Both the position numbers and the translations under genes were made by a program. Below the pieces are notes generated by a model, which saw nothing but the letters and a program-made list of their open reading frames with translations, did no database searches and had not been told where the DNA came from. This document shows positions 7,944 to 59,653 of a stretch of 64,000 bases of DNA, piece after piece. Source of the stretch: a plasmid. The stretch lies in sequence record NZ_CP118102.1, one strand, 5' to 3'. Numbering within the stretch: the stretch's first letter is position 1; every line of letters starts with the position of its first letter.

Positions 7944-8273
7944 ATGTCACATGAACAGTATAAACAATGTATAGAGGAATGCTTACGATGTATGGTGACT
8001 TGTAATCACTGCTATGATGCTTGTTTAAAAGAAGAAGACACTAAAATGATGGCAGAATGTATCCGTTTAGATCGGCTTTGTGCTGACATCTGCTCTTTTG
8101 CTGCAACAGCAATGAGCAGTAATTCACCATTTATCAAAGAAATTTGCTCATTGTGTGCTGAGATTTGCCAAGCATGTGGTGATGAGTGCAAAAAACATAA
8201 TCATGACCATTGTCAAAAATGTGCGGAAGCTTGTTTTAAATGTGCAGATGTATGTCGTAACATGGCTGCATAA
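7944..8273 (+). CDS. Csp3/YhjQ-like four-helix-bundle Cys-rich copper storage protein (DUF326)
   Basis: ~18 Cys in repeated CxxxC spacing (CIEECLRCMVTCNHCYDAC...CADICSFAA...CSLCAEICQACGDECKK...CQKCAEACFKCADVCR). The start is chosen at the ATG with correct aaggag spacing; the ORF track start at 7875 is likely too early. Confidence 0.65.
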   Translation: MSHEQYKQCIEECLRCMVTCNHCYDACLKEEDTKMMAECIRLDRLCADICSFAATAMSSNSPFIKEICSLCAEICQACGDECKKHNHDHCQKCAEACFKCADVCRNMAA

Positions 8274-8290
8274 CATTAAAACTACTTTTA

Positions 8291-8324
8291 TAACCGCTCC
8301 CAGTAACTGGGGCGGTTATTTTTG
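8291..8324 (+). terminator. Rho-independent terminator after the csp3-like gene
   Basis: aaccgctcccagtaactggggcggtt hairpin followed by atttttg. Confidence 0.5.
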
Positions 8325-8559
8325 ATTACAGCTGAAACAGTTTCTGATTATTAAAAAAGACATATCTATTACAAATTTGTTATGGTTATATGTCACAAAA
8401 TTTGATGAACTTTTTTTAGTCTGTCAATTTTTATTTAAAATCTCGATATGTTAGATAAAAATCCTTATCAAATCATAAGAAGCAACAAATTTTAAAGGTT
8501 ATAATTGACAAGTCTCGATTTATACACTACAGTGATTAGTGTTACAATATTTTAATTAT

Positions 8560-8672
8560 TTTGCCGAATTTTAATCTATTAAAAACGGGGGAACCACACT
8601 GGGTGAATTGTTCAAAATAGTGTTATATATAGGTAACCTTCTACCGAACCCTTAAGCTAACTCCGTAGGCAT
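8560..8672 (+). ncRNA. Candidate ydaO-type c-di-AMP riboswitch leader
   Basis: Lies in the leader of an NlpC/P60 hydrolase gene. It contains the elements ACGGGGGAACC, CUGGGUGAAUUG and ACCGAACCC, recalled from ydaO-class RNAs. A CUCC segment could pair with the GGAG RBS. Confidence 0.4.
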
Positions 8673-8691
8673 CGAAGGGAGAATATTATAC

Positions 8692-9171
8692 TTGAAAAAA
8701 ATTATTATGTCTCTATTAGGGGCTGTTATTATTATTTCTTCTGGAACCACAAGTGCATTTGCTAATGACCAATCAAAATTACAATCAGAAGTTAGCCAAG
8801 TGGTAGGAACACCTTATAAATGGGGTGGAACGTCCGTAGCAAGTGGCTTTGATTGCTCCGGCTTCATATTGTACATATTTGATAAATTCAATCAAAAACT
8901 TCCTAGAACTTCGGCTGCTCAAGCCAAAACAGGTACTGCGGTAGCAAAAAGCAACTTAAGAACGGGAGATTTGGTTTTCTTCAATACGAGTGGAAAAGGA
9001 ATATCTCATGCAGGGATCTACATAGGGGATGGACAATTTGCTCATTCCTCGAGCAGTAAAGGAGTAAGAGTAAGTAAACTTTCGGAAACATACTACAAGG
9101 AACGGTACGTTACAGCTAGAAGAACAATTAGTGATAAGAATTTTTCTAAGATGGTTGATGACTCTCATTAA
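8692..9171 (+). CDS. NlpC/P60 (C40) family cell-wall peptidase
   Basis: Signal peptide, then catalytic Cys (GFDCSGFILYIF) and His (ISHAGIYIGDGQFAH). TTG start with a gaagggag RBS. Confidence 0.8.
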   Translation: MKKIIMSLLGAVIIISSGTTSAFANDQSKLQSEVSQVVGTPYKWGGTSVASGFDCSGFILYIFDKFNQKLPRTSAAQAKTGTAVAKSNLRTGDLVFFNTSGKGISHAGIYIGDGQFAHSSSSKGVRVSKLSETYYKERYVTARRTISDKNFSKMVDDSH

Positions 9172-29000: not shown

Positions 29001-29162
29001 ACTAAGAATCTTTGAGTATTCCGCAGCCTGAGCTTTAGGTTCCAGTTCTGCAAACGAGTAGGTACCAACCAATAGTGCAACCACCAACGTTCCGATAAGA
29101 CTCCTCTTCCATCCAATCCGGATCTTATTCTTTTTCTGATTAATTTCCAAGTCACTCACCAC
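26004..29162 (-). CDS. Giant WxL-domain cell-surface protein with RCC1-like beta-propeller repeats and Ig-like domains
   Basis: Signal/anchor at the N-terminus. RCC1-like repeats (WGRGTEGQLGIGSK; YLYGWGTNSDGMFG). The C-terminal WxL module (GWQYSL...TYRSVFTFTLTSGI) is shared with the adjacent small WxL protein. Confidence 0.65.
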   Translation of the reverse strand: MVSDLEINQKKNKIRIGWKRSLIGTLVVALLVGTYSFAELEPKAQAAEYSKILSVEPYVSDYSSRPTVGYEFKLDDGKSLHLNMNSPYEVTGFDSGMKKVRSYTGGNSVYITQSGELYQGTPAVKMLDGVKDFEVINQAGKWSKFLSYFAVMEDTTVMAWGRGTEGQLGIGSKVDKTVPTEVVDPVTGDPLQGVQKIYSLAVDSVLLVTNNKVYLVGAGFNQNSRTNAKPVDITDRFPAFTDASEFEMKAVEGFNYIHDYNNPGTTTSLEASRRVFTVKGQSFSLTNFLAYDSRESLYGVGESKYSNTLYPFPADVKVENLRKMASAGEKTNSTSKNISTGYLNLDNGNLEYWGTPINSWNASEASFSSTRTQIATGVSKVWGTRAGTVIFAKPNGYLYGWGTNSDGMFGTKDRNITSPVRLTGPGNEIENIKDFAIQGNGTNGMLTIPRMFALKDDNTVLKWEGDGVITVLPKKYLSLFSLRPEISMQTHVYAIDEDGILGFFDQWGNWQVVSNAPVVYPADYVVPETAPDKPILSIASQDKFDQSVVSINFGTTGDIATKQYQINGGGWLDYNGEIVITDSGNVTIEARSADSNGNISEVGELTITSNPIVITEGHPTVEKLSKDEFKVRASATGSTKVQVKVDGGDWQEFNVDNNLLLQPGDHTVEVRMLNSRDEVLISKSFNLTAESPSEPVIVNKPVVVQKGLNTQYGLDLEVQFDPTEGDAYYSVGGGEWNKTTGVITVSNDVHTVRAKVVATDGIESEIVSFVTTKVDPKVMVEDGQLTVDPGISSPDLEVYYKDGQDEMWTEYAGPVAYAPGTYQIYVEIREVNSGNVVYSGGPFTIVVPGEGTDPNPDPTPNPGGPLETITTEDVDFTVHGGGLNSRFEGADLSTIIIDSTRPYQQINSVSRALIEDYRGNAKGWQYSLDVKDFVSDPITDNSLNTMDLVVSIPASSLSVDVKGSNTLSGPEAQLSNVGKKIFTGTQSEVLASAKEFEGMGYYEIPLDFTLSIPDKVNIESSGTGSKYVPGEETGLMAGTYRSVFTFTLTSGI

Positions 29163-29165
29163 CCC

Positions 29166-29735
29166 TTAAATACCTGAAGTCGCTGTATATGTAAATACAG
29201 ACTTATATGTTCCAGCGATAACCCCGATTTCTGCACCTTCACTATTTGTCATAGTCTTTGGCAAGCTCAGAATGTAATTCACCTCAAAATCATACGCTCC
29301 TTGACCTTTACCTACATCTGCGGAAACGATGGTGCTAGGAACTGAGGAGAGTACTTTGTTCTGTGCAAGCTCTCCACCTTGCGTAAAATCAATCGGTACA
29401 CCGGAAATGGTATTTTTCAGAGTGGTAGTAAATTGTACGATACTAGCAGGAAGCTTAAATTCCTGGCCGTCCATAGTAGTTACAAAATCTGTAGCTGCGA
29501 CACTATATGCCCAGCCAGCCCCATTGCCTCTATCATCAATTGCTCTAAGGAACGAATCCGCTTGTGATTTTAGATTATCCCTTGATGAGAGAGTAATGTC
29601 GTTAAAGCTTAGACGGGTTTGGGCGAACTGCAGACTTCCGCCTGTGACTGCAATCTCTTTCTCAATTTCTTGTGCAGAAGCTGCTAGAGGGAAAGCTATT
29701 ACCATTACTAGCATACTTGCCAAGACTTTCTTCAT
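29166..29735 (-). CDS. Small WxL-domain surface protein
   Basis: Signal peptide, GWAYSV and a C-terminal TYKSVFTYTATSGI. Confidence 0.65.
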   Translation of the reverse strand: MKKVLASMLVMVIAFPLAASAQEIEKEIAVTGGSLQFAQTRLSFNDITLSSRDNLKSQADSFLRAIDDRGNGAGWAYSVAATDFVTTMDGQEFKLPASIVQFTTTLKNTISGVPIDFTQGGELAQNKVLSSVPSTIVSADVGKGQGAYDFEVNYILSLPKTMTNSEGAEIGVIAGTYKSVFTYTATSGI

Positions 29736-29817
29736 CTCCTGTTCACTCCTTCAGATGTATTAGTTCTAATAGATCCTAAACTTACACCTTGCTCACCTCC
29801 TTTCAGGTCAGTTTTTT

Positions 29818-30936
29818 CTAGTGAGTCCCCTTAAACTGATGTGAGGCAAGCTTAGATTTAAGAGACTTCTCATCTCTTTCTTTCTTTTTCTTCTTAAGCA
29901 GGAGGAAAAGCAAGAGGAAGAAACCAATAATAAATACAAGAATTAAGATCCCTATTACAATTACTAAGGCCAGATTATTTTTTACCCAATCCCAGATATC
30001 TGTTTTTTGTAATATTCCTGCATAGTTCAATGCGTCTTGAGACTTCTGTGCTTCCGCTTCGGTTATCGTAAAGTTAAATGTTCTACTTACTTTGTCATCG
30101 CTATAATTAGCTTCAAAAATTGCGGAGTATTCTCCAGGAAGCAAAACTTTATCTTGTACCGTATAGACCATATCTGCTGTCGTACCCGCATAGATAGACT
30201 TTTCTGACGGTTGATTATTAAAACTTTCACTAAAAATACCATTACCCTTAGAGTCTCTTACTTGGAGGACACCGTGAGGCCTTTCTAAAATAGTACCTTT
30301 GTTAGTAAGCTTTACAGTAAATTGAGAAAAACCGTTAGCTATGTACTCATGTTTGAAATTGTCGATGCTCATTTCGTGCTTAGACTGTTCAACTTGATTT
30401 TCAAGAACGATCTGTACTCCTATTCTTTGAGCCTTCTCAATCAACATGACAGCATGAGTCGAATTCACCTCAGGTGTTCTCCTTTCAGAATTATCTAAAG
30501 ACTCCTCTGCGGCCACTACTCCTACATGCTGTCCAGGGACGATATTCTTTGGAACATTCACTTTGAAACTTAACTTCTTCTTCTCTTTCGCTTTTAGAGA
30601 TACTTTAAAGGGTTCTGCAGGTTGTATCCACGAACCAACTGATGCTAATTCCTCATCTTTACCTGAGAACAATTTGCCGCCATTAACACCTGGTTTAGCA
30701 TCTGCTGGATAAACCCAGACTTCTAACGGTTCTTCTTTTAAGTTCTGTAGATAGAAATCATAGGTCTTTGATTCTCCTCCACTTACAGTATCTCTGTAAA
30801 AACCCGTAGATTGTTCTATCTCTTTAACTGGAGACAAAAGGAACTTAACATCCTCTTGTGCTTCGACATGAGTATTTCCTATAACCATAAAGAAAAAAAA
30901 GCATAAGATTCCTAACATCCAGCTAGATTTTTTCAC
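29818..30936 (-). CDS. DUF916/DUF3324-type cell-surface protein with a C-terminal TM anchor (csc/WxL cluster partner)
   Basis: Signal peptide, then a C-terminal hydrophobic helix followed by KKKKKERDEK. Architecture typical of WxL-locus companion proteins. Confidence 0.55.
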   Translation of the reverse strand: MKKSSWMLGILCFFFFMVIGNTHVEAQEDVKFLLSPVKEIEQSTGFYRDTVSGGESKTYDFYLQNLKEEPLEVWVYPADAKPGVNGGKLFSGKDEELASVGSWIQPAEPFKVSLKAKEKKKLSFKVNVPKNIVPGQHVGVVAAEESLDNSERRTPEVNSTHAVMLIEKAQRIGVQIVLENQVEQSKHEMSIDNFKHEYIANGFSQFTVKLTNKGTILERPHGVLQVRDSKGNGIFSESFNNQPSEKSIYAGTTADMVYTVQDKVLLPGEYSAIFEANYSDDKVSRTFNFTITEAEAQKSQDALNYAGILQKTDIWDWVKNNLALVIVIGILILVFIIGFFLLLFLLLKKKKKERDEKSLKSKLASHQFKGTH

Positions 30937-30983
30937 TTCGTCATCTCCTCTACTCTTCTGCTACCTTTTGATGGAGTAAGCCC

Positions 30984-31634
30984 CTAACTACCTGTATTTA
31001 ACAGCGTCTCATCTTCTTTTGTAGTTAGCATGTTGAGCCAATTTGTTACTTTATCTAATTGTTCAATATTAATAGTGTTTCTAGGTTGATAATCGCGAAT
31101 GAAACTATCCAGTTCCTCAGTGGTTAGCACAGCTGTATTTGAATTTCTTTTTAAACTTACCTCTAATTCAACTTGGGGATGAGTAAATACAACGATCCCT
31201 TGTACCCACATTGGCAAACCGATGCTTTCAAGGTTCTTGGCAAGCACAAAAGTATGTATTCTGGTCATTGCCATAGGATTTCTAAGCGTCTTGGGTTCCG
31301 TGGTGTTATTTCCTGTCTGCTTGTACTGACACCAAACCTTATCTTCCTCAGATCCCACAATGCGGCCTGAACGATTCTTTCTGACGATGATAAAAACACC
31401 TTGATCTTGGACACGAATTTCCTCGATCTTCACTTTAATATCCTCATGAAACAGCTCAATATTTTTGTATATCTGGTTAGGGCTATCATGACTAAGAGTA
31501 TTTACTGGTTTTTTTCCTGTGGATTTTATTTCATGTCGAAATTTATTCTCCCTTAAAGTTTTGAATAGCAAGAAACATACAATTGCTAGGGACAATACAA
31601 TTAAAATGGTTGTTATTAAATTTTGTAACTCCAA
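30984..31634 (-). CDS. NERD (nuclease-related) domain membrane-anchored protein
   Basis: N-terminal TM followed by a GVFIIVRKNRSGRIVGSEEDKVW...VVFTHPQV core. Confidence 0.5.
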   Translation of the reverse strand: MELQNLITTILIVLSLAIVCFLLFKTLRENKFRHEIKSTGKKPVNTLSHDSPNQIYKNIELFHEDIKVKIEEIRVQDQGVFIIVRKNRSGRIVGSEEDKVWCQYKQTGNNTTEPKTLRNPMAMTRIHTFVLAKNLESIGLPMWVQGIVVFTHPQVELEVSLKRNSNTAVLTTEELDSFIRDYQPRNTINIEQLDKVTNWLNMLTTKEDETLLNTGS

Positions 31635-31658
31635 TTAATCCACCTACATATTTTGTAT

Positions 31659-31931
31659 TTAGTTAAATATGACTTTCGTTGAAAGTATTAAGAGTAATAT
31701 GAGATTCATGATAATAAGTAACGGGATACCTAACTTAAAAAGAAGGTGCTTTGTTTTATGTCTAAAAAGGTACATCCCCATCCATACGCCTGTTGCCCCA
31801 CCCAAGGCCGCGATTGCGAATAATCGCTTTTCTGGAACTCTCCGTGCTCTTATAATTGCCTGACTCTTGTCGTACCACATGATGAACAAGCCAGCAGTGT
31901 TAATAAGTGCAAAATAGCCGAATATTAGCAT
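31659..31931 (-). CDS. DUF1294 small membrane protein
   Basis: MWYDKSQA...RRVPEKRLFAIAALGGATG pattern. Confidence 0.5.
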   Translation of the reverse strand: MLIFGYFALINTAGLFIMWYDKSQAIIRARRVPEKRLFAIAALGGATGVWMGMYLFRHKTKHLLFKLGIPLLIIMNLILLLILSTKVIFN

Positions 31932-32102
31932 GCTTTTTCCCCTTAAAAATTTTAAAGAAATCTAATTAATCTAAATTACAAGACAAATAATATTACTCTC
32001 GATCAAAGCTGATACTTCACCCCTTTTAATTGTATGTATGTTAGTTAATATACTAATATACATATATACTAGTATCAATTATTTTCTTCTGAAAAGTACT
32101 AT

Positions 32103-32768
32103 TTAATTCTTAGGATTTATGGAAAGTTGACTCCAGGGAATTTTTACTGTAGAAACAGATTGATTATACTCGGTTTCCTGTTCTACTAGTTCGATGAGAG
32201 ATCGGAGGATGGCAGCATCAAAAAGAAAAGATTCTTCCTCCATTATTTTAATTGCACTAACAGCACTTAATGGAGATTGGTATGGCCTGCCTCCAATGAT
32301 CGTGGAAAATGTATCGCTTATAGCAGCTATCCGTCCACTTAAGGGGATCTGTTTACCCTTTAATCCTTTTAAGTATCCACTTCCATCAAAGCGTTCATGG
32401 TGGTACTCAACTATATTATTAATCACTGATGGGAGTTCAAAGCTTTCTATTAGCTTAATTCCCTTTTGTACGTGTTCAGATAAACATGCCTTATCCTTGG
32501 TCGAAAGGACTCCGTTTCCTTTTAAAATATCGTCCCCCATGGCGATCTTCCCTAAATCATGAATTAAAGAACCGGCATAGTATAGCATTGATTGTTTAGG
32601 GTCATGGATCTGAGCGAGTTTATATGAATAATGAGCCATCAAGACAGAATGGTTAGCGGTTTGTTCATCTCTCAATTTTATACAGTAGAAAAGTGCATCA
32701 ATGATCATCAAGTAGCTCTTTAAAGCCTGTTCATTCATCTTAGGCGATGGGTTCACTACGTTAACCAT
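32103..32768 (-). CDS. HD-GYP domain c-di-GMP phosphodiesterase
   Basis: IHDLGKIAM (HD) and HHERFDGSGYLKG (HD-GYP signature). Confidence 0.7.
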   Translation of the reverse strand: MVNVVNPSPKMNEQALKSYLMIIDALFYCIKLRDEQTANHSVLMAHYSYKLAQIHDPKQSMLYYAGSLIHDLGKIAMGDDILKGNGVLSTKDKACLSEHVQKGIKLIESFELPSVINNIVEYHHERFDGSGYLKGLKGKQIPLSGRIAAISDTFSTIIGGRPYQSPLSAVSAIKIMEEESFLFDAAILRSLIELVEQETEYNQSVSTVKIPWSQLSINPKN

Positions 32769-33883
32769 TAACTTACACCTACTTTTGGATTAATTTCACT
32801 GACATCTCTTGATGCCAAGGCTTCATGATCTCCGTATTCGACTACTCTGTTTTTCCCTGTCTTTTTTGCAACATACATAGCGTCATCAGCTCGTTTGATT
32901 AATTCGTCTGCAGATAGACCTTCAACAAATGTACTAAACCCTATACTTACAGTGATTGAGTAGATCCCCTCTTTCGTATCAAACGATGCCTCATTTTCCA
33001 CCCTAGAACGGATGGTTTCTGTTAGCTCGGAAATATTCAGATTCGACTCTATAATTAAAGCGACGAATTCTTCTCCCCCGTATCTTCCTCCAACACCTAC
33101 TCCTTCTAATTCCTCAATAAGGATTGATGAAACTTTCTTTAAAACAACATCACCTTTTTTATGTCCGAACGTATCATTTAACAGTTTGAAATTATCAATA
33201 TCTAGAAAAATTAAATGTGCATCAACTTTTTTGTCTACGCTTCTAGTGACAAATGTCGTGAACTGTTTACGATTGTATAGTCCGGTTAAGGGATCCTGTA
33301 TAGATGATTCATATGTATCACGAATTAATTGAATCAAGTAATCGACGATATACGAAATGATTACTGTGTAAGAAGAAATATATAGAAGAATGATAATTAT
33401 CTCTAAAGGTGGACTATTTCCTATAAACAAACCAAGGATTACGACTATCTTAGAGAGTATAAATAAGATAATTGAAGACTTTGCTTTGTTATGCATAGCT
33501 GCAGCTAGGTAATACCATGCAGCTGTCGCTAACACAATTGATAACATAGGCTGAATCGCAGGAAACGGAATCAGTAGACCAGTTAGTCCAATTGACCCAC
33601 ATCCTAGATAAACCACCGACCGCTCCCATCGCAGTACCGTGTTAGATAACTGGTAAAAGCTAAACAAGGTACAAATGAATAGTACGTCACCTAAGATTTG
33701 TGCTCTCAATGTCTGGTCATCAAATGCACCAAAAAGGGATAAAATATGATACACACTAGTTACAACTACAATAATGGTCAATTGAATATTGGTACTTGAG
33801 TTCTTACGTTTAGGCATTCTTCTAGTTAGATTCCACATTATATACAAAAGCGGAAGCATTATAACTGATTGTGAGAGTGACAC
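32768..33883 (-). CDS. Membrane-anchored diguanylate cyclase (GGDEF)
   Basis: ~6 TM N-domain, then RYGGEEF active site and a KKVDAHLIFLDIDNFK A-site. The stop overlaps the HD-GYP start. Confidence 0.8.
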   Translation of the reverse strand: MSLSQSVIMLPLLYIMWNLTRRMPKRKNSSTNIQLTIIVVVTSVYHILSLFGAFDDQTLRAQILGDVLFICTLFSFYQLSNTVLRWERSVVYLGCGSIGLTGLLIPFPAIQPMLSIVLATAAWYYLAAAMHNKAKSSIILFILSKIVVILGLFIGNSPPLEIIIILLYISSYTVIISYIVDYLIQLIRDTYESSIQDPLTGLYNRKQFTTFVTRSVDKKVDAHLIFLDIDNFKLLNDTFGHKKGDVVLKKVSSILIEELEGVGVGGRYGGEEFVALIIESNLNISELTETIRSRVENEASFDTKEGIYSITVSIGFSTFVEGLSADELIKRADDAMYVAKKTGKNRVVEYGDHEALASRDVSEINPKVGVS

Positions 33884-48863: not shown

Positions 48864-49772
48864 TTAGCTAAGATTATAGTATTGCTTCTCCTCATTCTGA
48901 AATATGAAAAAGCTTGTTTTGAGATTTTTCTGATGGTTGTACAGATCATTATCAGTTAGAAACCAAACATAATCTGAAATACCTTCTTGCATGATAAGCT
49001 TTTGTGCTAAAGTGGCCTTCTCTTCAGTAGAGAGAAGTAAGATGAGTATGCCACCACCTTCAGTACTTTTAAGAAAGTTTTTGTAGAACTGAGCTTGATA
49101 TCTTAAGGTTTTCAACCATTTCTCGTCTTCGCGATGAACAACCAAGTAGAATGAAAGCATTTTCCCCTTTGGAGTTCGAAGTATATAACGAGCCATGGGT
49201 ATTTGTTGTTCTTCTTCAATTTTTAAAATAGGATGAAATTCAAAGTGTGTCATTTTGAAATTCTCTCGAAGTTGAATATACAACTCGTTAGTCACTGAAT
49301 ATTTCATTCGATATAGCATGGTCATAGGCCGTGTAGCCCTCGGATCTCTATTACCTAACACTAAGCCGTATCGATATTTCAATACATCAGCACCGCTAGC
49401 ACCTAACTCATAAAAACTCTGACGATTCTCACTCGGACTTGAATAAGTTTTCCATTGAATGCGCCGAATCATTCCATATTTCAACAGCTTACGAACTCTC
49501 TTTTTAACTGTTTCCTCTCTCTCTGCTTCAGGAAAGAAAATTCTTTGTAATTGAGATAGCGTAATCCAGCGGTGTACAAAAAGAAATCTTACAATTTCAA
49601 TATCCCTGTCTGTGATCCAACCATTTTTTATTTTTTCTTCGATGTAATAAAACTCATGTCTTGTTAGCTGATCCATCCCTGTAACGTACGCATATGGATC
49701 ATCCCAAATCGGTTTTGGTTGGAGTGTCGGTTCTTCCGCTGAATCTAACAACGGAGACACTTGAAATTCCAT
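48864..49772 (-). CDS. Replication-relaxation family protein (Replic_Relax-like wHTH)
   Basis: LTRHEFYYIEEKIKNGWITDRDIEIVRFLFVHRWITLSQLQRIFF...KKRVRKLLKYGMIRR, the pattern of plasmid replication-relaxation proteins. Confidence 0.5.
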   Translation of the reverse strand: MEFQVSPLLDSAEEPTLQPKPIWDDPYAYVTGMDQLTRHEFYYIEEKIKNGWITDRDIEIVRFLFVHRWITLSQLQRIFFPEAEREETVKKRVRKLLKYGMIRRIQWKTYSSPSENRQSFYELGASGADVLKYRYGLVLGNRDPRATRPMTMLYRMKYSVTNELYIQLRENFKMTHFEFHPILKIEEEQQIPMARYILRTPKGKMLSFYLVVHREDEKWLKTLRYQAQFYKNFLKSTEGGGILILLLSTEEKATLAQKLIMQEGISDYVWFLTDNDLYNHQKNLKTSFFIFQNEEKQYYNLS

Positions 49773-49784
49773 ATTACACTCCCC

Positions 49785-52395: not shown

Positions 52396-52440
52396 AGAGT
52401 AGCATGACGGATTACTCCGTCGCGCTACTCTTTTTTTCCT
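52396..52440. terminator. Bidirectional rho-independent terminator
   Basis: aaaagagtagcatgacggattactccgtcgcgctactcttttttt. Confidence 0.55.
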
Positions 52441-54862
52441 TTCTGGAGATTTGTGCATCGTTCTTGATTTGCTGTGCTAACTTAAGTGCCTTATCATCTA
52501 TACTTGCCGGTTTGAAGGTTACCCCACTAGGAGATACAACACTCTCATTTACCTTCAGCTTCGATTTATCATCATCAATACTTCGAGCCAATGGTTCTGG
52601 GTCATCCCAAATCGAATTTCGGATTATCTCTGGCTCAGTGTCTTCAGTATGGAGTTCAGCCTCAACTTTAGTGGAATGAAGTTCTTTACTAAGTTGTGCG
52701 TTCCTTTTTATTCTTTCCAGTTGATCAATACTATTATCTTTTCTTTTCCCTCCTACATCCCCCCTATTTGGAGATTCCGTATTTAATATCTCCTGGTCTT
52801 CAATAATCTCATCATCTTTTAAAACTTCTTTAAGGGGAGTGAACAGGATCTTCGGCAGCGGATAGATAAGCCCTATTACCGGATCCAGTCTAACATTATT
52901 ATGTACTCCTCTGAATAGACATTCCGCGGGATCCCCAGTTTCAGGATTGTATCCTTTCAGACTAAGTATTTCTTTTGGCATCACAGTATACCTTTTTTCT
53001 TCTTTTATCTGAGTTTTGAAACCAGTAGCAGACATTTCATCAGTCCCACTACTTTGTCCAATTTTGTATTCTTCACCTATCATTTCTGAATAGTACTTAG
53101 CATCATTAGGATCCAAACCAGCCATTATGAATTTCTGAACAGCATTTTGTTTTACCATAGCTCCTAATCTTTTACTCACATCGTCTAATTGTTCATTCCC
53201 TTGATGAATCACATTAACAAACACTTCGAATTCTCTGGCCATTTCCATAAATGTTGAGAATTCTTCATCCGCAAACATTTCCACTTCATCGATAGTTAAT
53301 TGATGTGGGCGTACATTCCCATCCATATTTCTCCGGAATGTGCTCGCCCTTGCAAGGTTCAAAAATAAACGACCAGCAGTGTACGTTAAAGTTTGTAATG
53401 TACCGTAAGCTCCATTAAAAAGAATAATTTCGCCATTCTTCATAGCTTCATCAATGCTAAATGTTGATTTACCACAAAACATCTTTTGAATATATTTGTT
53501 AGACGTCAATTCAGAAAGGTAATCATACAAGTTAGAGTAAGTTTGCATCGCATGCTCCTGCATTTTAGGTGAACCCGCCATATTTCGTGTATATTCAATC
53601 AGCAACGGTACCTGACTTTCTTTTCCAAGAAGTGTAATTTGGTGCAACACTTCAACTCTAAATTCATCATTAATTGGTTGAATCAACTTATCTAACTCAT
53701 TGTAAGTGGCTTCGTTTCCGTAAACTAGTTTTAACGCTTTAACACCTACTCGAAAAAGCTGTGTAGATCGACTTTTAAAGTAAATTTGTGCATCTGGTCC
53801 AAGATAAGCATGAAACGCTGCTACATTCCTCTCGATCATTGGTTCAATATCTTCACTTTCAGGAACATAAAAAGGATTTAAACAATCAGAGTTCTCAACC
53901 AAAGGATCAAGTCTGTAATACTTCCTCCCAATTCGATCCAAAAAATTAGCCATTCGTTTTATCAAACTTCCCTTAGGATCAATAATCGTACTTCCAATGT
54001 AGTCATTCAACAAATCCTGAGTAATCAAGTTAGTTGCGAAAAGAGTTTTACCAGCTCCTGTTCCTGCAATGATTTGACCATGCTGTGCTCTATCTGATCG
54101 ATTAAGCTTCATGAGCTGACTTTGTCTTTCTCTAGTTGGATTCGTGTAAAACAGTTCCAATTCACATAACTCAGAGTAGTATCTTAAATGGCTTAAACAA
54201 CCTGGTGTATTTATATCTATATCCTCTAATTTAACTAGTCCATCTCTAATAAAAGTAGTATTCTCCTCCCCCTCTCCCTCTCCCTCGCTCTCACTAAAAG
54301 TCATTATTGTATTTTTTGACTTACTTTTGTTAGAAGTATTTATTCCCTCAGCTGCCACAGAGAGTTTATTAAAAATTGTAGAATTCGCCCGTATACGCAA
54401 TGTGTAATATAAAGTCAAGATGATTGTAGATACGAATAAAAGAATTGTAATTACAAATCCAATTTTATTGTCTGTAAAATAAATTATCAGTTGGCCTACT
54501 GCTAGCACACTAAGTGCATTCAAAAAAGTCTGAATTACAGGCTTTGCATAATGATTTCTATGTAATGCAGGACATGAATATATCGAGTGTCCTAAAAAGC
54601 AGACTAAAATAATAGGAACTGCTCTAAATACAATCGGATCATCTATTCCGAGTATTACGTCTTGATATTTTGTGACCAACCATAGAAAAATGATAATTAA
54701 TAAAACTAACAATAAAAAAGCTTGAGAATTCCAGATGGTATTCTTATTTACTGGATCAAGAGAAAATCTTCGAACAGCAATATACACATTCTTAAATATA
54801 AATGCTATCATATGACCGATGGCTGAAATTATTCCTCCGATAACCATTCCAATATATTTCAA
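52412..54862 (-). CDS. Type IV secretion coupling protein (VirD4/TraG/TcpA family)
   Basis: N-terminal TM helices, Walker A IIAGTGAGKT, IIDPKGS, and a Walker B-like LTIDEVEMFADEEF. 816 aa with an acidic/lysine-rich C-tail. Confidence 0.7.
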   Translation of the reverse strand: MKYIGMVIGGIISAIGHMIAFIFKNVYIAVRRFSLDPVNKNTIWNSQAFLLLVLLIIIFLWLVTKYQDVILGIDDPIVFRAVPIILVCFLGHSIYSCPALHRNHYAKPVIQTFLNALSVLAVGQLIIYFTDNKIGFVITILLFVSTIILTLYYTLRIRANSTIFNKLSVAAEGINTSNKSKSKNTIMTFSESEGEGEGEENTTFIRDGLVKLEDIDINTPGCLSHLRYYSELCELELFYTNPTRERQSQLMKLNRSDRAQHGQIIAGTGAGKTLFATNLITQDLLNDYIGSTIIDPKGSLIKRMANFLDRIGRKYYRLDPLVENSDCLNPFYVPESEDIEPMIERNVAAFHAYLGPDAQIYFKSRSTQLFRVGVKALKLVYGNEATYNELDKLIQPINDEFRVEVLHQITLLGKESQVPLLIEYTRNMAGSPKMQEHAMQTYSNLYDYLSELTSNKYIQKMFCGKSTFSIDEAMKNGEIILFNGAYGTLQTLTYTAGRLFLNLARASTFRRNMDGNVRPHQLTIDEVEMFADEEFSTFMEMAREFEVFVNVIHQGNEQLDDVSKRLGAMVKQNAVQKFIMAGLDPNDAKYYSEMIGEEYKIGQSSGTDEMSATGFKTQIKEEKRYTVMPKEILSLKGYNPETGDPAECLFRGVHNNVRLDPVIGLIYPLPKILFTPLKEVLKDDEIIEDQEILNTESPNRGDVGGKRKDNSIDQLERIKRNAQLSKELHSTKVEAELHTEDTEPEIIRNSIWDDPEPLARSIDDDKSKLKVNESVVSPSGVTFKPASIDDKALKLAQQIKNDAQISRKEKKSSATE

Positions 54863-55009
54863 AAAGCTGCACCTCTCATATTAGTATATTAGTTAATTAA
54901 TATATTACAATAAAATCCTCTAAAATCTACTACCTATTGAATATTTCTTACTGAACGAAACGGCAATTGAACAGACTTAGATTACAAATATACATTTCTC
55001 CCATGCACA

Positions 55010-55090
55010 TGGAGCCCCCTCCATCTAACTTAAACGTCTCCCACACTCATGTAGACCCCCTCCCACACCGAAAATACCCCCTCCAATTAT
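55010..55090. repeat. CCCCCTCC direct-repeat iterons (3 copies; spacing 41 and 21 bp)
   Basis: Copies at 55015, 55056 and 55077. A related ggggggagggg run occurs at 56341..56354. Confidence 0.5.
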
Positions 55091-55159
55091 GTAGGAGATC
55101 GTCTCCCAGTCCAAAATTATACTCTTACACTTTAACTTGCAACAGTATTTATGGTATAT

Positions 55160-55380
55160 GTATACATCTCTCATAGTATTAGTATCTATCTATCTTATTT
55201 GATATATATATCTCTCTTAGTATGTATATATATCTCTCTCAATGAATTGGAGATATATACATGTGCCTTGTTTGCTCTTCCCGATTCAATGGGAGTCGTA
55301 TATAATTCTATTAAGAGAACCGTATTACATCGGGTAGATACATCTCTCAATCATTTTGGAGAGGGTCTCCAATACGAAGG
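55160..55380. repeat. AT-rich iteron field with ATATCTCTC motifs and inverted copies (ATATCTC...GAGATAT)
   Basis: gtatacatctctc, tatatatctctctt and atatctctctcaatgaattggagatatat, plus catctctcaatcattttggagag. Confidence 0.5.
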
Positions 55381-55390
55381 GAGGGTTATC

Positions 55391-56200
55391 ATGAACGAAA
55401 CTATGTTTGAAAAGGCCTATACAATTAAGGAATTTAGTGATGCTACAGGAGTTCCGCAAAATACTCTCCGTAACTGGGAGGAAAAATTGGGGGAAGCTTT
55501 TGTAGTCCCAAGGGATCCACACGAGAATCGTTACTATACTGAGAGGCATTTAGAATTAATCCGGCTAATTCAGAAATGGCGCGATTCCGAGTATGAGTTG
55601 AGCTTTACCCAGATAAAGCAGATGCTTCTCCATATGAATATGGCAGGGCCTAAAAATGAGATGTATTCAGCTCCAAGTGGGGAAGAAGGGGGCTCCAACT
55701 CACTTGTATCCCTCTCCCAACAGAATTCACAATCCTTACAGCTACAAGAGGTTCAACAACTTGTAGTTAATATGGAAGAGCGTATGCAGCAGTTTTTTGG
55801 TCACCTTGATCAAGTGCTGCAAACACACGCTGAAACTACCCACGCGTTCGTTAGGCAAGAAATTGAGACTCTAAAATCATCTCAATCTAGTAGAGACGAG
55901 AACTTAATTCAGAAAATAGAATCAAAATTCCATGACAAAATTCAAGAAGAACACAGAGAGTTTCTATCTAGCATCAATTCAATGAAAGATGAGTTTAGAT
56001 CTCAGGTTGAGACAACTACAGAAACAAACAAAAGACACTTAGATGACCTTATGGCAAACACTAAGAGCGAGTTCCAACAACAGTTAGAGGACAATATGAA
56101 GAACTGGGCAGTTATCTCCCGAGAAGATTTAGAAAGAGAAGAGAATGCACGTAAGAAAAAGAAAAAAGGATTCTTCGGGTTATTCGGTGGGGGAGAGTAA
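55391..56200 (+). CDS. MerR-like HTH protein with a long coiled coil and a Lys/Gly-rich tail
   Basis: The start is placed at MNETMF with a gaagggaggg RBS, so the upstream part of the track ORF is likely non-coding iterons. YTIKEFSDATGVPQNTLRNWEEKLG is a MerR-type HTH. Confidence 0.5.
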   Translation: MNETMFEKAYTIKEFSDATGVPQNTLRNWEEKLGEAFVVPRDPHENRYYTERHLELIRLIQKWRDSEYELSFTQIKQMLLHMNMAGPKNEMYSAPSGEEGGSNSLVSLSQQNSQSLQLQEVQQLVVNMEERMQQFFGHLDQVLQTHAETTHAFVRQEIETLKSSQSSRDENLIQKIESKFHDKIQEEHREFLSSINSMKDEFRSQVETTTETNKRHLDDLMANTKSEFQQQLEDNMKNWAVISREDLEREENARKKKKKGFFGLFGGGE

Positions 56201-56203
56201 CAA

Positions 56204-56236
56204 AAAAAGCGCTGCTTTACGCGGCGCTTTTTTTGT
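56204..56236. terminator. Rho-independent terminator
   Basis: caaaaaaagcgctgctttacgcggcgcttttttt. Confidence 0.5.
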
Positions 56237-56269
56237 TACTCTTTTCAGTAATAAGAAGGGAAGTACACT

Positions 56270-56315
56270 CAGATTAAATTAACGACGCGTAATGTTACGT
56301 AACGCATCGTTATTA
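56270..56315. repeat. ACG...GCGTAACG-type iteron downstream of tubZ (tubC-like)
   Basis: aacgacgcgtaatgttacgtaacgcatcgttattatt. It is related to three motifs at 58060..58240, including a shared cgttattatt tail. Confidence 0.45.
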
Positions 56316-56355
56316 TTGGATAACAACCCACCCCTATAAAGGGGGGGAGGGGAGC

Positions 56356-57687
56356 CTACAGTAAAAAGTCATCATCATCAGATGATTTAGTCTTTTTGCT
56401 TGTATCTCCAAATAAATCAAACTCACTATTTACCGGTTCCTTTGATGCTGCCACTTCATTTTTTGTGATTGTTTTGAATGCAGACAAATCCAATGTTGTC
56501 TTGTTCTTTCTCTCATTCTTTTTAATTTCTAACTCTTGCTCTTCGCGGTCAATTTCCTCCAACATTTTAACGATTCTATCAGGTAATTGGGAGCATACTA
56601 CACCAGTATAGAGAATTGCTTTATTGGTTTCATTTTCGCTGTGTTTTCCTCGACTAGTAGTTGTTCCCCAGATATTGTTTTCAATCAATCCGGAATGAGG
56701 TTTCTCAGCATTAGCAATAAAGCGGCCAAATCTTTCTTCCAGTGTTCTAAACTCTGAATCAGTTATAATCGGGTTCTTATGCTTAGGATGAATTACTGCA
56801 ACAAATCCATTTACTGCATCCAGTTCGTAGTCATAGTCATTGGCAGTAGGAGATTCTCTGAAGCTCTTTTCAATGATAGAAGTGAGGCTATTTACTTCAA
56901 GAGAGTCATTCTCATGAATATAGCATTTTCCCGACGAATAGTAGCCAGGAGTACTCAGTACATCAAGTAATTCATCTTCGTCAAAAGTCTTGCTAGAAGG
57001 GAGTGAAGTCATAAAAGATATCTCTGTGAGCAATGAAGCGAGAGTACTGTTACCATAGTCAGTCCATTCTAGTTTAGTTTCTGTGTTACTAAAAATCCCT
57101 TCTGTCATCGTGTATAGCTTTTCATTATCAATGATTGTAACTGATCCACAAGCGTTTTTCTTAATCAATTCATCAATATGTGATAAACCCCATCGAGCGT
57201 TCTTTTTGATACCACGTTTTTCCCATGATCCTGGTACTGAGACGATTGCGCCAAATGACGGTTTTCCGTTGAATGGCTTTCTTACTCTGCTTAAGTTACT
57301 TAAGATGATAGGAGCAGCTGCATTACCTGTGCCTCCACCCATACCTGCGATAACAAAAACAAAGTCAGCATCTACAACATCGGGATTGCTTAAAAGAGAG
57401 AGGACCATTTCACGGTTATCTTTAATAGCAGCTTGGCCACGCTCTATATCCTTGACTGCTCCATTGTAACCCTCTAATTTGATAATATTCTGGACAACTT
57501 TGAGGTCCGAAAGGTCTGATTCAGAGGTGTTTAGAGCGTAAACTGTATGTCCTAACCGGGCTAGTTCGTCACCTTGACGTCCACCGAATTGTCCGCAAGC
57601 TATAAAACAAAACTTAAGTTTTTTCTGGTTACCATCAGTCCGACGCATAAAGCCCTCAAGTGTGATAAATCCAAGATTCATTTCCAT
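56356..57687 (-). CDS. tubZ: TubZ-like tubulin/FtsZ-superfamily GTPase (plasmid/phage partition)
   Basis: T1 loop FIACGQFGGRQGDEL (cf. TubZ GAGQKGNKEADL) and the tubulin signature GMGGGTGNAAAP. It lacks FtsZ-like C-terminal features. Confidence 0.65.
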   Translation of the reverse strand: MEMNLGFITLEGFMRRTDGNQKKLKFCFIACGQFGGRQGDELARLGHTVYALNTSESDLSDLKVVQNIIKLEGYNGAVKDIERGQAAIKDNREMVLSLLSNPDVVDADFVFVIAGMGGGTGNAAAPIILSNLSRVRKPFNGKPSFGAIVSVPGSWEKRGIKKNARWGLSHIDELIKKNACGSVTIIDNEKLYTMTEGIFSNTETKLEWTDYGNSTLASLLTEISFMTSLPSSKTFDEDELLDVLSTPGYYSSGKCYIHENDSLEVNSLTSIIEKSFRESPTANDYDYELDAVNGFVAVIHPKHKNPIITDSEFRTLEERFGRFIANAEKPHSGLIENNIWGTTTSRGKHSENETNKAILYTGVVCSQLPDRIVKMLEEIDREEQELEIKKNERKNKTTLDLSAFKTITKNEVAASKEPVNSEFDLFGDTSKKTKSSDDDDFLL

Positions 57688-57709
57688 TAGTTTTACCTCC
57701 TATTATTGT

Positions 57710-58012
57710 TTAAGCCTTACTATCACGTAAGTAAAGAGCTAATTGTTTTCCTCTTATTTCGTCTGGAATATACTTCTTCTGTCTCCGATCGAGTGGGGAG
57801 GGGTCTACATTAACAAAACCATTGGTCTCTAATAGAAGAAGAGCCTTCTCTACTAAATAACGATCCCCAATTTTACTAACCAGAAGTGTCCAGGTAACTC
57901 CTCCTTCAGAACGGTGATTCCAAATCTCAGCAAATACGCTGATCATTTCTTGTGGAATTCTACGAGCTATAAAGTCTAATACTTCTGGAGGGTATTCAAC
58001 GTGACCATTCAA
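57710..58012 (-). CDS. tubR: TubR-like small DNA-binding protein upstream of tubZ
   Basis: 100 aa, immediately upstream and co-oriented with the tubZ-like gene. Size and position match TubR. Confidence 0.4.
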   Translation of the reverse strand: MNGHVEYPPEVLDFIARRIPQEMISVFAEIWNHRSEGGVTWTLLVSKIGDRYLVEKALLLLETNGFVNVDPSPLDRRQKKYIPDEIRGKQLALYLRDSKA

Positions 58013-58059
58013 TTCTCAATCACTCCCTTTCACATAAGATATTACGATTTGAAATAAAC

Positions 58060-58240
58060 TAAAACACACGACGCCTTACGACGCACTAAATATGATTTAA
58101 CAAAAATAATTAACGTTACTTAACGCAGCGTCATTTTATGTAATTTGACACTTTAGCCTTAGAATCCTGCATATTATCTACAATTTTAATAATTTAAAAT
58201 CCAGAATTTCACGTTGCGTAACGTGTCGTTATTATTATTC
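58060..58240. repeat. Cluster of three TTACGTAACG-like motifs upstream of tubR (candidate tubC centromere)
   Basis: cacgacgccttacgacgcac; taacgttacttaacgcagcgtc; cacgttgcgtaacgtgtcgttattatt. Confidence 0.45.
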
Positions 58241-58651
58241 CGCAGGATATTGTTTCCTGTCAAGTTCTTGGAGCCTTAATTTCATTTTTTTTAGTGCTTC
58301 TATGATTAGTTGGAACTAAATCCAGTTCAAAATTTTGGTCTTATTAAGTTCAAACGAAGCTTTTTGAGTAGAGTAATATATTTAGAAAGTTTGCAATTAC
58401 GCTGTTGCTTCCCATTAATAAATTTGGTTACCGTTTATCTTTATAGGAATTTGTTCATCCATTGACTCCTTATTTGTCCATTCATTGATCTTTTTATCTA
58501 TCTGCCTAATTGTTTTTTAATTTCATGATACAAAGCCAATGATTTTGTTATACTTCCTTGTATGGCGTGGGTTCTTAATCATAAAGAATTCCCGACTAAT
58601 ACCCTAAAAGAGGGTGTATCAACCTAAGCCCACTCATGGGTAGCAAAGGAG

Positions 58652-59653
58652 ATGAATGAATTGGCTGACCAAGTGAAGTTTGAACGGATTGATCCAAGTG
58701 AAGAGGGAGGCAAAAAACGAAAGAAGGGAGTTAGCGACTACTCCATAGGCGAAGCGATAGATCTCCTAACAGAGAGGGAGTGGCGTCTATTGATAGACCT
58801 CTACAAGTGTAGATGTATCCCACAAACAGAAGTCGTAGACACGTACTTTATTGATTCACCAGAAATGCATTATGAGGAATATGTAACTGCAGGTAAGGTA
58901 GAAAAAAACAAACTGGAAGAAAAAAATAGGAACAGAGCAGTCTTGAAAGCACGCCGGACATTTAAGCGGTTAAAGGATCGCGGTCTAGTAGAAAGTACTT
59001 CCATCATTCCAGATGCTATTGATTTACCAAGCAAACGAAGGGGGAGAGTTACAGGAGAAACATGGTATTACCTATCTAACAGAGGACTGAGGATAGTTGA
59101 GAAACGATTAGAAATACCTGATGATTCTAAGTTGTCTAAAGTTGAAGTAGACATGGAACGAGCGAAAAAAGACCATTATTGGGAACTCGGAAAGATATAT
59201 CTCGATTTAAGATATCAGTGGATGGCGAGATTTAATGATTTAAGACAATTCATTGATTGGGATTGGTATCCCTCTGAAATAGTGTGGGGAGACAATAGGG
59301 TAAAAGAGGTACGCCCCGATGCAATATTGCGAATTGGAGAACAGCTCTTTTGTATTGAGTTAGATCGATCTACTGAACCAATTCAGAGATCCCCTTTCTA
59401 CACGGAACAGGTTTCCATACAAAAGAAGCTGGAACGGTATAGAGATGTTATAAAAGCTTCTACGAATCCAATAATTCGAAATTCAATCATTGCTTTTGTA
59501 ATTCCAGATGCTGTTTATCGGACAAGGCTTCAAAATATAGGTAATGCTGCCGATAAAGTTTTTGGCAAAAAACATCGAGTGCTGATTGGTCGGAAAATAG
59601 AAGATATTCTTATTGCTTATTCCGATCTTGCAGGCACATCCCACTACAATTAG
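58652..59653 (+). CDS. Replication-relaxation family protein (second paralog)
   Basis: LTEREWRLLIDLYKCRCIPQTEVVDTYF ... RRTFKRLKDRGLVES, the Replic_Relax wHTH pattern. Confidence 0.5.
   Translation: MNELADQVKFERIDPSEEGGKKRKKGVSDYSIGEAIDLLTEREWRLLIDLYKCRCIPQTEVVDTYFIDSPEMHYEEYVTAGKVEKNKLEEKNRNRAVLKARRTFKRLKDRGLVESTSIIPDAIDLPSKRRGRVTGETWYYLSNRGLRIVEKRLEIPDDSKLSKVEVDMERAKKDHYWELGKIYLDLRYQWMARFNDLRQFIDWDWYPSEIVWGDNRVKEVRPDAILRIGEQLFCIELDRSTEPIQRSPFYTEQVSIQKKLERYRDVIKASTNPIIRNSIIAFVIPDAVYRTRLQNIGNAADKVFGKKHRVLIGRKIEDILIAYSDLAGTSHYN

Follow-up and report, generated by a model that had tools for sequence, protein, structure and literature searches.

A field of short, helically phased repeats lies in the 528-bp non-coding gap at positions 54863-55390 of a 64,000-nucleotide stretch of plasmid DNA (sequence record NZ_CP118102.1; this whole stretch is called the window below). 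The gap separates two divergent genes, one for a TraG/VirD4-type coupling protein (T4CP) and one for a protein that carries a MerR-type helix-turn-helix (HTH) and resembles the partition protein TubY. On the comparison of related loci the field can be read, with a probability of roughly 0.6, as a TubY-box array, that is, as the cis target of the TubY encoded downstream in a type III partition module (TubZ-TubR-tubC plus TubY). The array would be the tubY operator and probably a segrosome-loading site too. Positions 54000-58200 of the window are 100% identical to 28588-32788 of NZ_CP118110.1, a ~190-kb circular conjugative plasmid of Paenibacillus urinalis, and a P. provencensis contig encodes a TubY-like protein 100% identical to the one here.

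Anatomy of the repeat field

The elements found between the two divergent genes are as follows.

54884-54915, no strand assigned: AT-rich palindromic block GTATATTAGTTAATTAATATATTACAATAAAA, adjoining the divergent T4CP start; it forms the field boundary and lies outside the TubY-box array
54996-55112, + strand: C-rich block of six half-sites at ~21-bp phasing, including the three CCCCCTCC copies
55122-55150, + strand: conserved spacer block CACTTTAA-N-TG(T/C)A..GTATTT (here CACTTTAA-N-TGTAGAAGTATTT), recognisable in five loci
55157-55262, + strand: AT-rich block (72-80% A+T) with half-sites at 22-bp phasing
55278-55306, + strand: putative tubY promoter, with -10 TATAAT at 55301-55306, a poor -35 and the half-site ATGGGAG (55289-55295) in the spacer
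55339-55372, + strand: leader element, in which half-site TACATCTCTCA is followed by palindrome TTGGAGAGGGTCTCCAA just before the ribosome-binding site

The repeat CCCCCTCC occurs exactly three times in the window, all on the + strand (55015, 55056 and 55077), and its spacings of 41 and 21 bp are just as an earlier sequence-only reading of this DNA had given them; 0.81 copies would be expected in the whole window, and three matches were reached in 4 of 100 shuffles, never clustered. The AT-rich iterons with internal inverted copies that the same reading had described are also real. TAYATCTCTC is found five times in the window against 0.34 expected, a count reached in none of 100 shuffles, with four of the five at 55163, 55207, 55229 and 55339, and the inverted copy GAGATATATACAT stands at 55250-55262. 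Both repeat classes are variants of a single half-site, TCTCC(C/A)A or TCTCTCA (complement TTGGAGA or TTGTAGA), with the core CTCYC / GRGAG. Ten such CTCYC cores lie on the top strand, at 54998, 55019, 55038, 55060, 55081, 55103, 55168, 55190, 55212 and 55234, and they are phased with a Rayleigh R of 0.88 at a period of 21.5 bp. The unbiased 3-mer autocorrelation of 54990-55270 has its maximum at lag 22 (z = 10.9), the highest value among 227 control tiles of the window being 7.2, at other lags; the helical-phase spacing noticed earlier is borne out by these two measures. The array comprises about 10 half-sites, phased at ~21.5-22 bp (two helical turns) and spanning about 240-370 bp.

Several of the half-sites have an inverted partner 3 nt away, giving 7-3-7 palindromes with the consensus TTGKAGA-N3-TCTMCAA, a format that MerR-type winged-helix domains read as dimers. 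The leader palindrome TTGGAGAGGGTCTCCAA (55356-55372) is a perfect example and the sole exact match to the consensus in the window and in the 190-kb plasmid. The half-sites of the C-rich block are TCTCCCA (54997), CCCTCCA (55017), TCTCCCA (55037), CCTCCCA (55059), CCTCCAA (55080) and TCTCCCA (55102); three of them have an inverted partner and so make up the imperfect palindromes ATGGAGCCCCCTCCAT (55009-55024), ATGTAGACCCCCTCCCA (55049-55065) and TAGGAGATCGTCTCCCA (55092-55108). Those of the AT-rich block are TACATCTCTC (55163), the degenerate TATCTATC (~55185) and two copies of TATATCTCTC (55207 and 55229), with an inverted copy, TTGGAGATATATACAT, at 55247-55262. The conserved block at 55122-55150 divides the C-rich from the AT-rich half-sites, and the TubY-box model leaves it unexplained.

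A promoter consensus scan of the region gave no enrichment (12 matches against 12.3 in shuffles), and the assignments made here are therefore predicted promoters that rest on cross-locus conservation. The tubY promoter element G/TATATAAT is invariant in six loci and always has a TTGKAG-type half-site just upstream. The position of the leader palindrome is kept in six of six loci with symmetric changes; the palindrome could also form an RNA hairpin, with a fold z-score of only -1.7. The boundary block at 54884-54915 is (almost) invariant in all orthologous intergenic regions despite their diverged flanks; a promoter-like match on the - strand overlaps it, and it may be the T4CP promoter or operator. 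A MerR-style operator within the 19-bp spacer of a promoter directed toward T4CP (55113-55086) was also considered and set aside, since that promoter is not conserved in P. lautus.

The gap is non-coding. An open reading frame (ORF) runs on from 55151, and a start at 55391 had nevertheless been preferred in the sequence-only reading; this start is supported by RefSeq, by the ribosome-binding site AAGGGAGGG 5 nt upstream and by the same Met being shared by the homologues, while the upstream extension is not conserved in orthologues.

Conservation of the field in related loci

P. lautus pAZOPL1 and P. sp. Cedars (77-79% nucleotide identity) share with the window the order T4CP, gap, MerR-like gene, tubZ, tubR-like gene, gap, Replic_Relax, as do P. 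rubinfantis, a Bacillus cereus contig and a Pristimantibacillus metagenome-assembled genome. Scans of genomes and metagenomes for further TubY relatives yielded few true orthologues (2 and 1, respectively), the remaining matches being unrelated MerR HTHs that were ignored. One locus, L037, is a 2.1-kb metagenome contig from the European Nucleotide Archive that covers tubY and its upstream gap only. The synteny of tubY holds in the 7 examined loci of this TubY clade.

In six diverged orthologous loci the palindrome is retained, and so are the phasing at 22 bp and the placement upstream of tubY. The blocks within the gap also share their order: (A/T)TGTAGACCC(C/T)CTCC sites, then TATACATCT-type half-sites, then a GTATATAAT -10 following a TTGKAG half-site, and finally the palindrome before the ribosome-binding site. 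The C-rich block with its (A/T)TGTAGACCC(C/T)CTCC sites is kept in L002, L008, L025, L027, L030 and L037. Of the seven loci of the clade, six have their strongest autocorrelation at lag 22; L030 is the exception, with lag 57 ahead of lags 21 and 23. The B. cereus contig (L025) has two perfect palindromes upstream of tubY that are exactly 22 bp apart, and a search for exact copies matched two in the same place in L030. When the palindrome was searched for with up to 2 mismatches in six loci, 12 of the 14 matches fell in the gaps upstream of tubY, which make up ~4.5% of the DNA scanned.

Two natural experiments that associate the field with TubY

Since the field lies among several candidate binders, the loci that carry weight are those in which the neighbours have been separated from one another. 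In L030 the TubY is the one protein recognisably conserved (36% identity over 256 residues); tblastn searches of this locus, covering 12.7 kb of a 34-kb contig, gave no match with TubZ, TubR, T4CP, DUF3116 or Replic_Relax. Its T4CP gene stands elsewhere on the contig, after Replic_Relax, and its TubR is 21% identical in an alignment. Three TTGTAGA-N3-TCTACAA palindromes nonetheless persist upstream of tubY. Around the tubR-like gene the motif is TATAGTGTCTAT, which replaces the TAACG/CGTTA motif of the putative tubC centromere, and a second cluster of it lies beyond tubY (L030 5160-5425).

The reverse situation is seen in P. polymyxa pSb31l and a P. peoriae plasmid. These retain T4CP (48%), TubZ (58%), TubR (47%), DUF3116 (51%) and Replic_Relax (53%), and have TAACGG-N2-CCGTTA tubC sites on both sides of tubRZ, but the tubY slot holds a different, pXO1-like TubY that has no match to the P. 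urinalis protein. The P. polymyxa pSb31l TubY aligns with pXO1 TubY over its full length (25% identity, BLASTP E 7e-6), the GFFxxLFG tail included. Upstream of this tubY there are seven tandem 43-bp iterons (GAnCTACGACATATAGCGGTCTACnCGTAGGCTAC...; positions 8200-8730 of the P. polymyxa locus L005 and 8262-8753 of the P. peoriae locus L006), with one or two more downstream of the promoter, and their sequence is unrelated to the P. urinalis field. The top autocorrelation lag of the P. polymyxa field is 43 (z = 28).

The field thus persists where TubY alone is conserved and is replaced where TubY is replaced; it tracks TubY and no other neighbour. From these comparisons the tubY gene and its field appear to have been exchanged as one cassette.

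The TubY-like protein

TubY is the third protein of type III partition and is made up of a MerR-like HTH, a proteolytically sensitive linker, a parallel tetrameric coiled coil and a lysine/phenylalanine tail, which binds DNA non-specifically and membranes (PMC7762940). In the AlphaFold2 model the P. urinalis protein has a MerR-type winged HTH at residues ~8-84, a disordered linker at 88-113 and a single ~125-residue helix at 115-240. The HTH matches Pfam MerR_1 at 7.1e-15, and a Foldseek search with the model matched the winged HTH domains of NmlR, MtaN and RacA. The tail (KKKKKGFFGLFG / KKKKKGFFGLFGGGE) is rich in lysine and phenylalanine; 8 homologues share its KKKKxGFxGLFG motif, which is similar to GFFSKLFGK in pXO1 TubY. 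An hhalign comparison of the protein's own family with a profile of the pXO1, P. polymyxa and P. peoriae TubY proteins gave 85.5% (E 5.7e-6) over the HTH only, and that with pXO1 TubY alone gave 53%. The gene is treated as tubY on the strength of the architecture and tail, the tubZ and tubR-like neighbours, the pXO1-like positional orthologue and the profile match. The architecture is that of TubY; tetramerisation and membrane binding are predicted from the family only. The tubY gene forms its own transcription unit, convergent to tubZ, 155 nt from the tubZ stop and with its own terminator.

A likeness to KfrA or other segregation-associated filaments, as opposed to a metal regulator, had been suggested from the HTH and coiled coil. 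In spirit that suggestion holds, both for the segregation-associated kind of protein and against a metal regulator: the protein has no Cys and no effector domain, the 125-residue helix and basic tail standing in place of the latter, and all NCBIfam MerR equivalogs score far below their cut-offs, so that a classical effector-sensing MerR regulator can be rejected. The KfrA identity does not hold, since Pfam gives no KfrA_N match at E <= 0.01, the HTH is of the MerR type and the genes beside it encode TubZ and TubR-like proteins.

The tubRZ genes and a distinct centromere motif

The module and its flanks contain the following features.

52412-54862, - strand: T4CP (TraG/VirD4-type coupling protein) gene, Pfam T4SS-DNA_transf match at 1.4e-17
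55391-56200, + strand: tubY-like gene, 269 residues, MerR-type HTH
56195-56241, + strand: intrinsic terminator of tubY, a 20-bp stem followed by a T-run
56280-56318, no strand assigned: likely tubC2, TubR-type sites TAACGACGCGTAATGTTACGTAACGCATCGTTATTATT with the TAACG-N2-3-CGTTA motif, downstream of tubZ
56328-56355, - strand: G+C-rich hairpin at the tubZ 3' end, a stem-loop fold with analogous hairpins at the same place in orthologues
56356-57687, - strand: tubZ, 443 residues, tubulin/FtsZ-like GTPase with Pfam Tubulin and TubZ-like_C matches
57710-58012, - strand: tubR-like gene, 100 residues, assigned by position and size
58066-58263, no strand assigned: likely tubC1 and predicted tubRZ promoter, with TAACG/CGTTA-type sites at 58068-58086, 58111-58133 and 58210-58237
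58652-59653: Replic_Relax gene, after a 639-bp gap from the tubR-like gene and followed by Tcp-like transfer genes

TubZ matches Pfam PF00091 (Tubulin) at 8.9e-12 and PF22453 (TubZ-like_C) at 7.7e-8; its closest solved relative is pXO1 RepX/TubZ (4ei7, 2e-18, residues 50-387), and a tblastn search of phage genomes with it gave no match. The tubR-like ORF, which the orthologues share, precedes tubZ by 22 nt within a single operon. Its product has no Pfam or NCBIfam match, aligns with pXO1 TubR at an hhalign probability of 0.6% and gives weak MarR-type matches in the PDB (E 0.29); by its position and size it is presumed to be a winged-helix centromere-binding protein. TubR proteins are known to be poorly conserved (PMC7762940).

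The predicted tubRZ promoter on the - strand (-35 TTGACA at 58263-58258, -10 AATAAT at 58239-58234, an 11/12 promoter match) is overlapped at its -10 by the TAACG/CGTTA sites. The TAACG-N2-3-CGTTA motif brackets tubRZ on two sides, a layout kept in L002, L008, L025, L027 and L005 (P. lautus, P. rubinfantis, B. cereus, Pristimantibacillus and P. polymyxa), and from their place and form these sites are likely to be the bipartite TubR centromere tubC. No copy of the motif is present in the repeat field. A poly-G/GGAGGGG block at 56341, which had been thought related to the repeats, turns out to be something else: it has no CCCCCTCC match on either strand and is one arm of the tubZ 3' hairpin, with equivalent hairpins in the orthologues.

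A different arrangement is seen in P. amylolyticus pY5S7-2 (L004 7724-8407), where a tubRZ operon with a 56% identical TubR and TTAACGCGTCGTTA repeats is followed by a MerR-like protein in the same orientation that has no lysine/phenylalanine tail, and there is no T4CP gene nearby. No phased array was detected upstream of this MerR-like gene.

Points that weigh against a TubY-box array

The binding of TubY to the field is deduced from comparative genomics, and a number of points must be set against it. The double dissociation consists of one lineage in each direction, and a conserved binder could be encoded on the L030 contig beyond the 12.7 kb covered. The 7-mer half-site pattern, which matches 11 times in 54990-55390 (the maximum of the window, where 400 bp hold 0.97 matches on average), is partly post hoc, with the orthologous loci as its independent support. 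Only the HTH shows detectable homology to canonical TubY; sequence and profile searches of the PDB returned MerR HTHs and apolipoprotein-like helices and no match to 7C7Y, the C-domain of pBc10987 TubY. Further, the TubY of pBc10987 and pBsph acts at the tubRZ promoter, and there is no convincing box at that promoter in P. urinalis, where a scan for TubY boxes found isolated weak half-sites only, with a single TTGGAGC at 58268. An action of the leader palindrome at the RNA level is also conceivable. Finally, a whole-plasmid skew feature, described below, leaves a small chance of an origin-related role for the tub module.

Alternative explanations of the field

The field could be a conjugation control region, or an accessory field of the origin of transfer (oriT), that binds a relaxosome component or a transfer regulator of the T4CP operon. 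It lies between the T4CP gene and the remainder of the Tcp-like transfer cluster, and multi-site accessory-protein arrays do occur at oriT regions. In L030, however, the palindromes stay with tubY while T4CP is found elsewhere, after Replic_Relax, and the field is unlinked to either Replic_Relax gene. The candidate small regulator, DUF3116, is kept at 51% in P. polymyxa, where the field has been replaced. There is no conserved core resembling a nick region in the field, and a better oriT/nic candidate, the invariant CGACTAATACC together with CCCACTCATGGG, is present ~50 nt upstream of Replic_Relax. This explanation is therefore considered unlikely.

Alternatively, the field could be an iteron-type, or secondary, origin of replication, in which the 22-bp repeats bind an initiator and the 72-80% A+T tract at 55140-55260 unwinds. 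Direct repeats phased at 22 bp are the classic iteron format (lag-22 z = 10.9; R = 0.88), the AT-rich tract is in place, and the inverted copies near the promoter of the adjacent gene mimic Rep autoregulation. In addition, the cumulative GC-skew minimum of the whole plasmid and a switch of gene orientation fall in the tubYZR module, at plasmid position 33223 (window 58635), with the maximum nearly opposite, at 136130. The minimum is 3.3 kb from the field, however, in a different intergenic region (the tubR/Replic_Relax gap), and the fine-scale skew follows gene orientation across tubY-tubZ-tubR and does not point at the field. No Rep-family gene adjoins the field, its neighbours being T4CP and TubY, and no DnaA box (with up to 1 mismatch) is found in 54863-55390. 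The repeats are largely palindromic and co-vary with the MerR-like protein. A dedicated replication module is present at plasmid 80.9-93 kb, with a DnaA_N protein, two 'replication initiation protein' genes, toprim and DnaN; within it (NZ_CP118110.1 80962-87727, equal to L034 30962-37727), the two initiation protein genes occupy 83143-85475, and rep is immediately preceded by at least 10 ACTCCT-N-TTGTGACAG iterons, present in both orientations (L034 32375-33040). The Rep genes, with iterons of their own, are thus ~53 kb from the field. The sequence-only reading had left the choice between an origin and a regulator-bound partition/incompatibility site. The latter fits, as a partition-regulator site that co-varies with TubY; the former is quite improbable given the missing Rep gene and DnaA box and the separate Rep module, and the tempting annotation of the iterons as an origin is corrected here.

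A proposal that joins the two has a similarly small chance of being right. The array could be an origin-organising element in which TubY tetramers, MerR-type proteins being able to untwist DNA, open the adjacent 120-bp AT-rich tract, the tubY-tubZ-tubR module then having a possibly secondary origin of its own. If true, this would explain why the GC-skew minimum and orientation switch lie at the tub module and not at the Rep module. It would also account for the first isolation of tubRZ-containing fragments, from pXO1, pBtoxis and pBsph, as minireplicons. In a milder version, the array could be an autonomous second centromere, akin to sopC or ram, and an incompatibility determinant read by TubY.

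It is also possible to suppose that there is no dedicated array at all, the gap being an ordinary divergent promoter region with pyrimidine and AT repeats that arose by chance or slippage and the leader palindrome being an mRNA hairpin only. The lack of enrichment of promoter-like matches would fit, as would the inflation of the autocorrelation by AT dinucleotide runs (lags 2, 4 and 6 score too) and the ability of the leader to fold so as to occlude the ribosome-binding site. The same 17-bp palindrome, 22-bp lag and block order recur, however, where the flanking spacer has diverged and where TubY is down to 36% identical; palindrome copies far upstream of the promoter make an RNA role unlikely, and the fold z-score of the leader is weak. 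The lack of any dedicated array is very improbable.

Lastly, the field as a third tubC block bound by TubR is very improbable and was rejected: type III centromeres are short arrays of direct or inverted repeats that can be split into blocks (PMC5016525, PMC6009700), and the field is <1 kb from tubRZ, but the distinct TAACG-N2-3-CGTTA motif conserved at the tubRZ promoter and downstream of tubZ is absent from it, and the two natural experiments dissociate the pair, P. polymyxa keeping TubR and a TAACG-type motif beside a wholly different field and L030 keeping the palindrome beside a very different TubR and another tubC motif.

A possible mechanism

The pBc10987 TubY forms a tetramer and requires both of its domains for DNA binding; its target is the 150 bp beside its own gene, and the TubR sites are not bound (PMC7762940). 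TubY is further reported to join TubR-tubC and to bind membranes (PMC7762940), to destabilise TubZ filaments (PMC7762940, PMC5322520) and, as cited in PMC5322520 and PMC5016525, to activate tubRZ and modulate TubZ filaments. MerR-like winged HTH domains are known to bind palindromes in the case of RacA (PMC4914108) and arrays of direct repeats in that of BldC (PMC5859096).

With a TubY-box array in P. urinalis, a TubY tetramer would bind boxes in pairs on the same face of the DNA; the four HTH domains of a tetramer would fit two boxes that are two helical turns apart, as in the 22-bp pair of B. cereus. Occupation of the boxes in the -10/spacer region and the leader would lead to autoregulation of tubY, and perhaps to control of the divergent T4CP operon. 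At the upstream boxes a complex of DNA with several TubY tetramers would nucleate, ~1 kb away from the TubR centromere sites on either side of tubRZ. Since the array, with ~10 half-sites here or 7-9 x 43 bp in the sister clade, is larger than simple autoregulation would need, a centromere-like role in the loading of several tetramers is proposed. More speculatively, the amphipathic lysine/phenylalanine tail, together with an affinity for TubR-tubC and TubZ, might tether the plasmid to the membrane, and the TubY complex might help to unload the plasmid from the treadmilling TubZ filament, the array then being a TubY-specific, centromere-like accessory site.

Of the components of tubulin-based segregation, TubY is the least understood; it is needed for plasmid stability by a mechanism that has been called elusive (PMC5016525), and its known DNA target so far is a 150-bp fragment from one plasmid (PMC7762940). 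This kind of system, type III TubZRC with TubY, is known; what is added here by comparative genomics is a candidate TubY recognition sequence, TTGKAGA-N3-TCTMCAA, a natural array phased at 22 bp and a natural specificity swap in P. polymyxa. These make it possible to test the target of TubY, the number of tetramers loaded and a role as second centromere or membrane tether. For plasmid biology at large this is an ordinary result, and for the small TubY field a worthwhile one.

The partition module within the transfer genes

The transfer cluster around the field is Tcp-like, with TcpC and TcpE homologues and two Replic_Relax genes; these two paralogues (48865-49773 and 58652-59653) bracket the tub module. 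These large conjugative plasmids of Paenibacillus and Bacillus embed a type III partition module within their transfer gene cluster. In pXO1 (L031 3988-5274) a Replic_Relax gene and an FtsK-like translocase directly adjoin repX(tubZ)/tubR, and from such arrangements the linkage of type III partition genes with a putative relaxase/coupling-protein pair seems to be old. An Rfam scan of 54500-59000 gave no credible match.

The gap between the tubR-like gene and Replic_Relax holds two further elements. Imperfect direct repeats, TTCATCCATTGA / TCCATTCATTGA, are found at 58450-58510, and TTCATC/GTCATTC-like repeats occupy the equivalent place in P. lautus, P. rubinfantis, B. cereus and Pristimantibacillus. 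At 58593-58603, in the 58590-58640 region, there is the invariant 11-mer CGACTAATACC, which occurs once in the window and once in every one of seven orthologous loci, among them the diverged P. polymyxa and P. peoriae plasmids; in five loci the conserved ATCAACCyAAnCCCACTCATGGG follows it. This element is a candidate oriT/nic core or leader element. A similar CCGACTAATCACC is present in the tubR-tubY gap of pXO1 (L031, ~7790).

Comparison with known systems

Iteron origins of theta plasmids (R6K gamma, F ori2, RK2 oriV) have ~22-bp phased direct repeats by an AT-rich tract and inverted half-repeats at the adjacent promoter. The P. urinalis field differs from these in having neither an adjacent Rep initiator nor DnaA boxes, a Rep-plus-iteron module being found elsewhere on the plasmid. 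KfrA of IncP and IncU plasmids combines an N-terminal HTH with a long coiled coil, regulates its own gene through inverted repeats and has an accessory role in segregation.

RacA of B. subtilis is similar in its MerR-like winged helix, disordered linker and coiled coil, and in the clustered palindromes (ram) and membrane or pole anchoring of its system (PMC4914108). It differs in that it is anchored via DivIVA and not by its own amphipathic tail, has no tubulin partner and reads sites that do not form a phased array. The ram sites are dispersed over ~600 kb of the chromosome. BldC likewise has a MerR-type winged HTH, which reads direct arrays of a variable number of half-sites as head-to-tail multimers and distorts the DNA (PMC5859096); it has no coiled coil, however, and its repeats are contiguous, at about one helical turn or less as opposed to the 22 bp of P. 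urinalis.

The TubY (TubX) proteins of pBc10987/pXO1, pBsph and phage c-st share the MerR-type HTH, flexible linker, long coiled coil, lysine cluster and GFFxxLFG-type amphipathic tail (PMC7762940). They too are encoded beside tubRZ as a separate transcription unit, and the C. botulinum gene is likewise downstream of tubRZ (PMC7762940). The sites of pBc10987 TubY lie beside its own gene and apart from the TubR sites (PMC7762940), just as in P. urinalis the boxes precede tubY and differ from the tubC motif. In contrast, the similarity of the P. urinalis protein to pXO1 TubY is confined to the HTH, and its sites are separated from the tubRZ promoter by tubY, tubZ and tubR. No description of a long phased array for TubY was found in the literature covered, the primary papers on pBsph TubX and c-st TubY being outside that scope.

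The F plasmid centromere sopC is built of 12 x 43-bp repeats, in each of which SopB binds an inverted repeat, and R1 parC is another plasmid centromere array. The P. urinalis field differs from both in its presumed binder, which is a MerR-like accessory protein, and in the presence of a separate TubR centromere, partition or incompatibility conferred by the array alone being only a candidate function. It resembles them in its tandem, helically phased repeats with short inverted repeats beside partition genes, and in the predicted doubling of the array as an operator; the P. polymyxa and P. peoriae version, at 7 x 43 bp, carries the likeness to sopC further.

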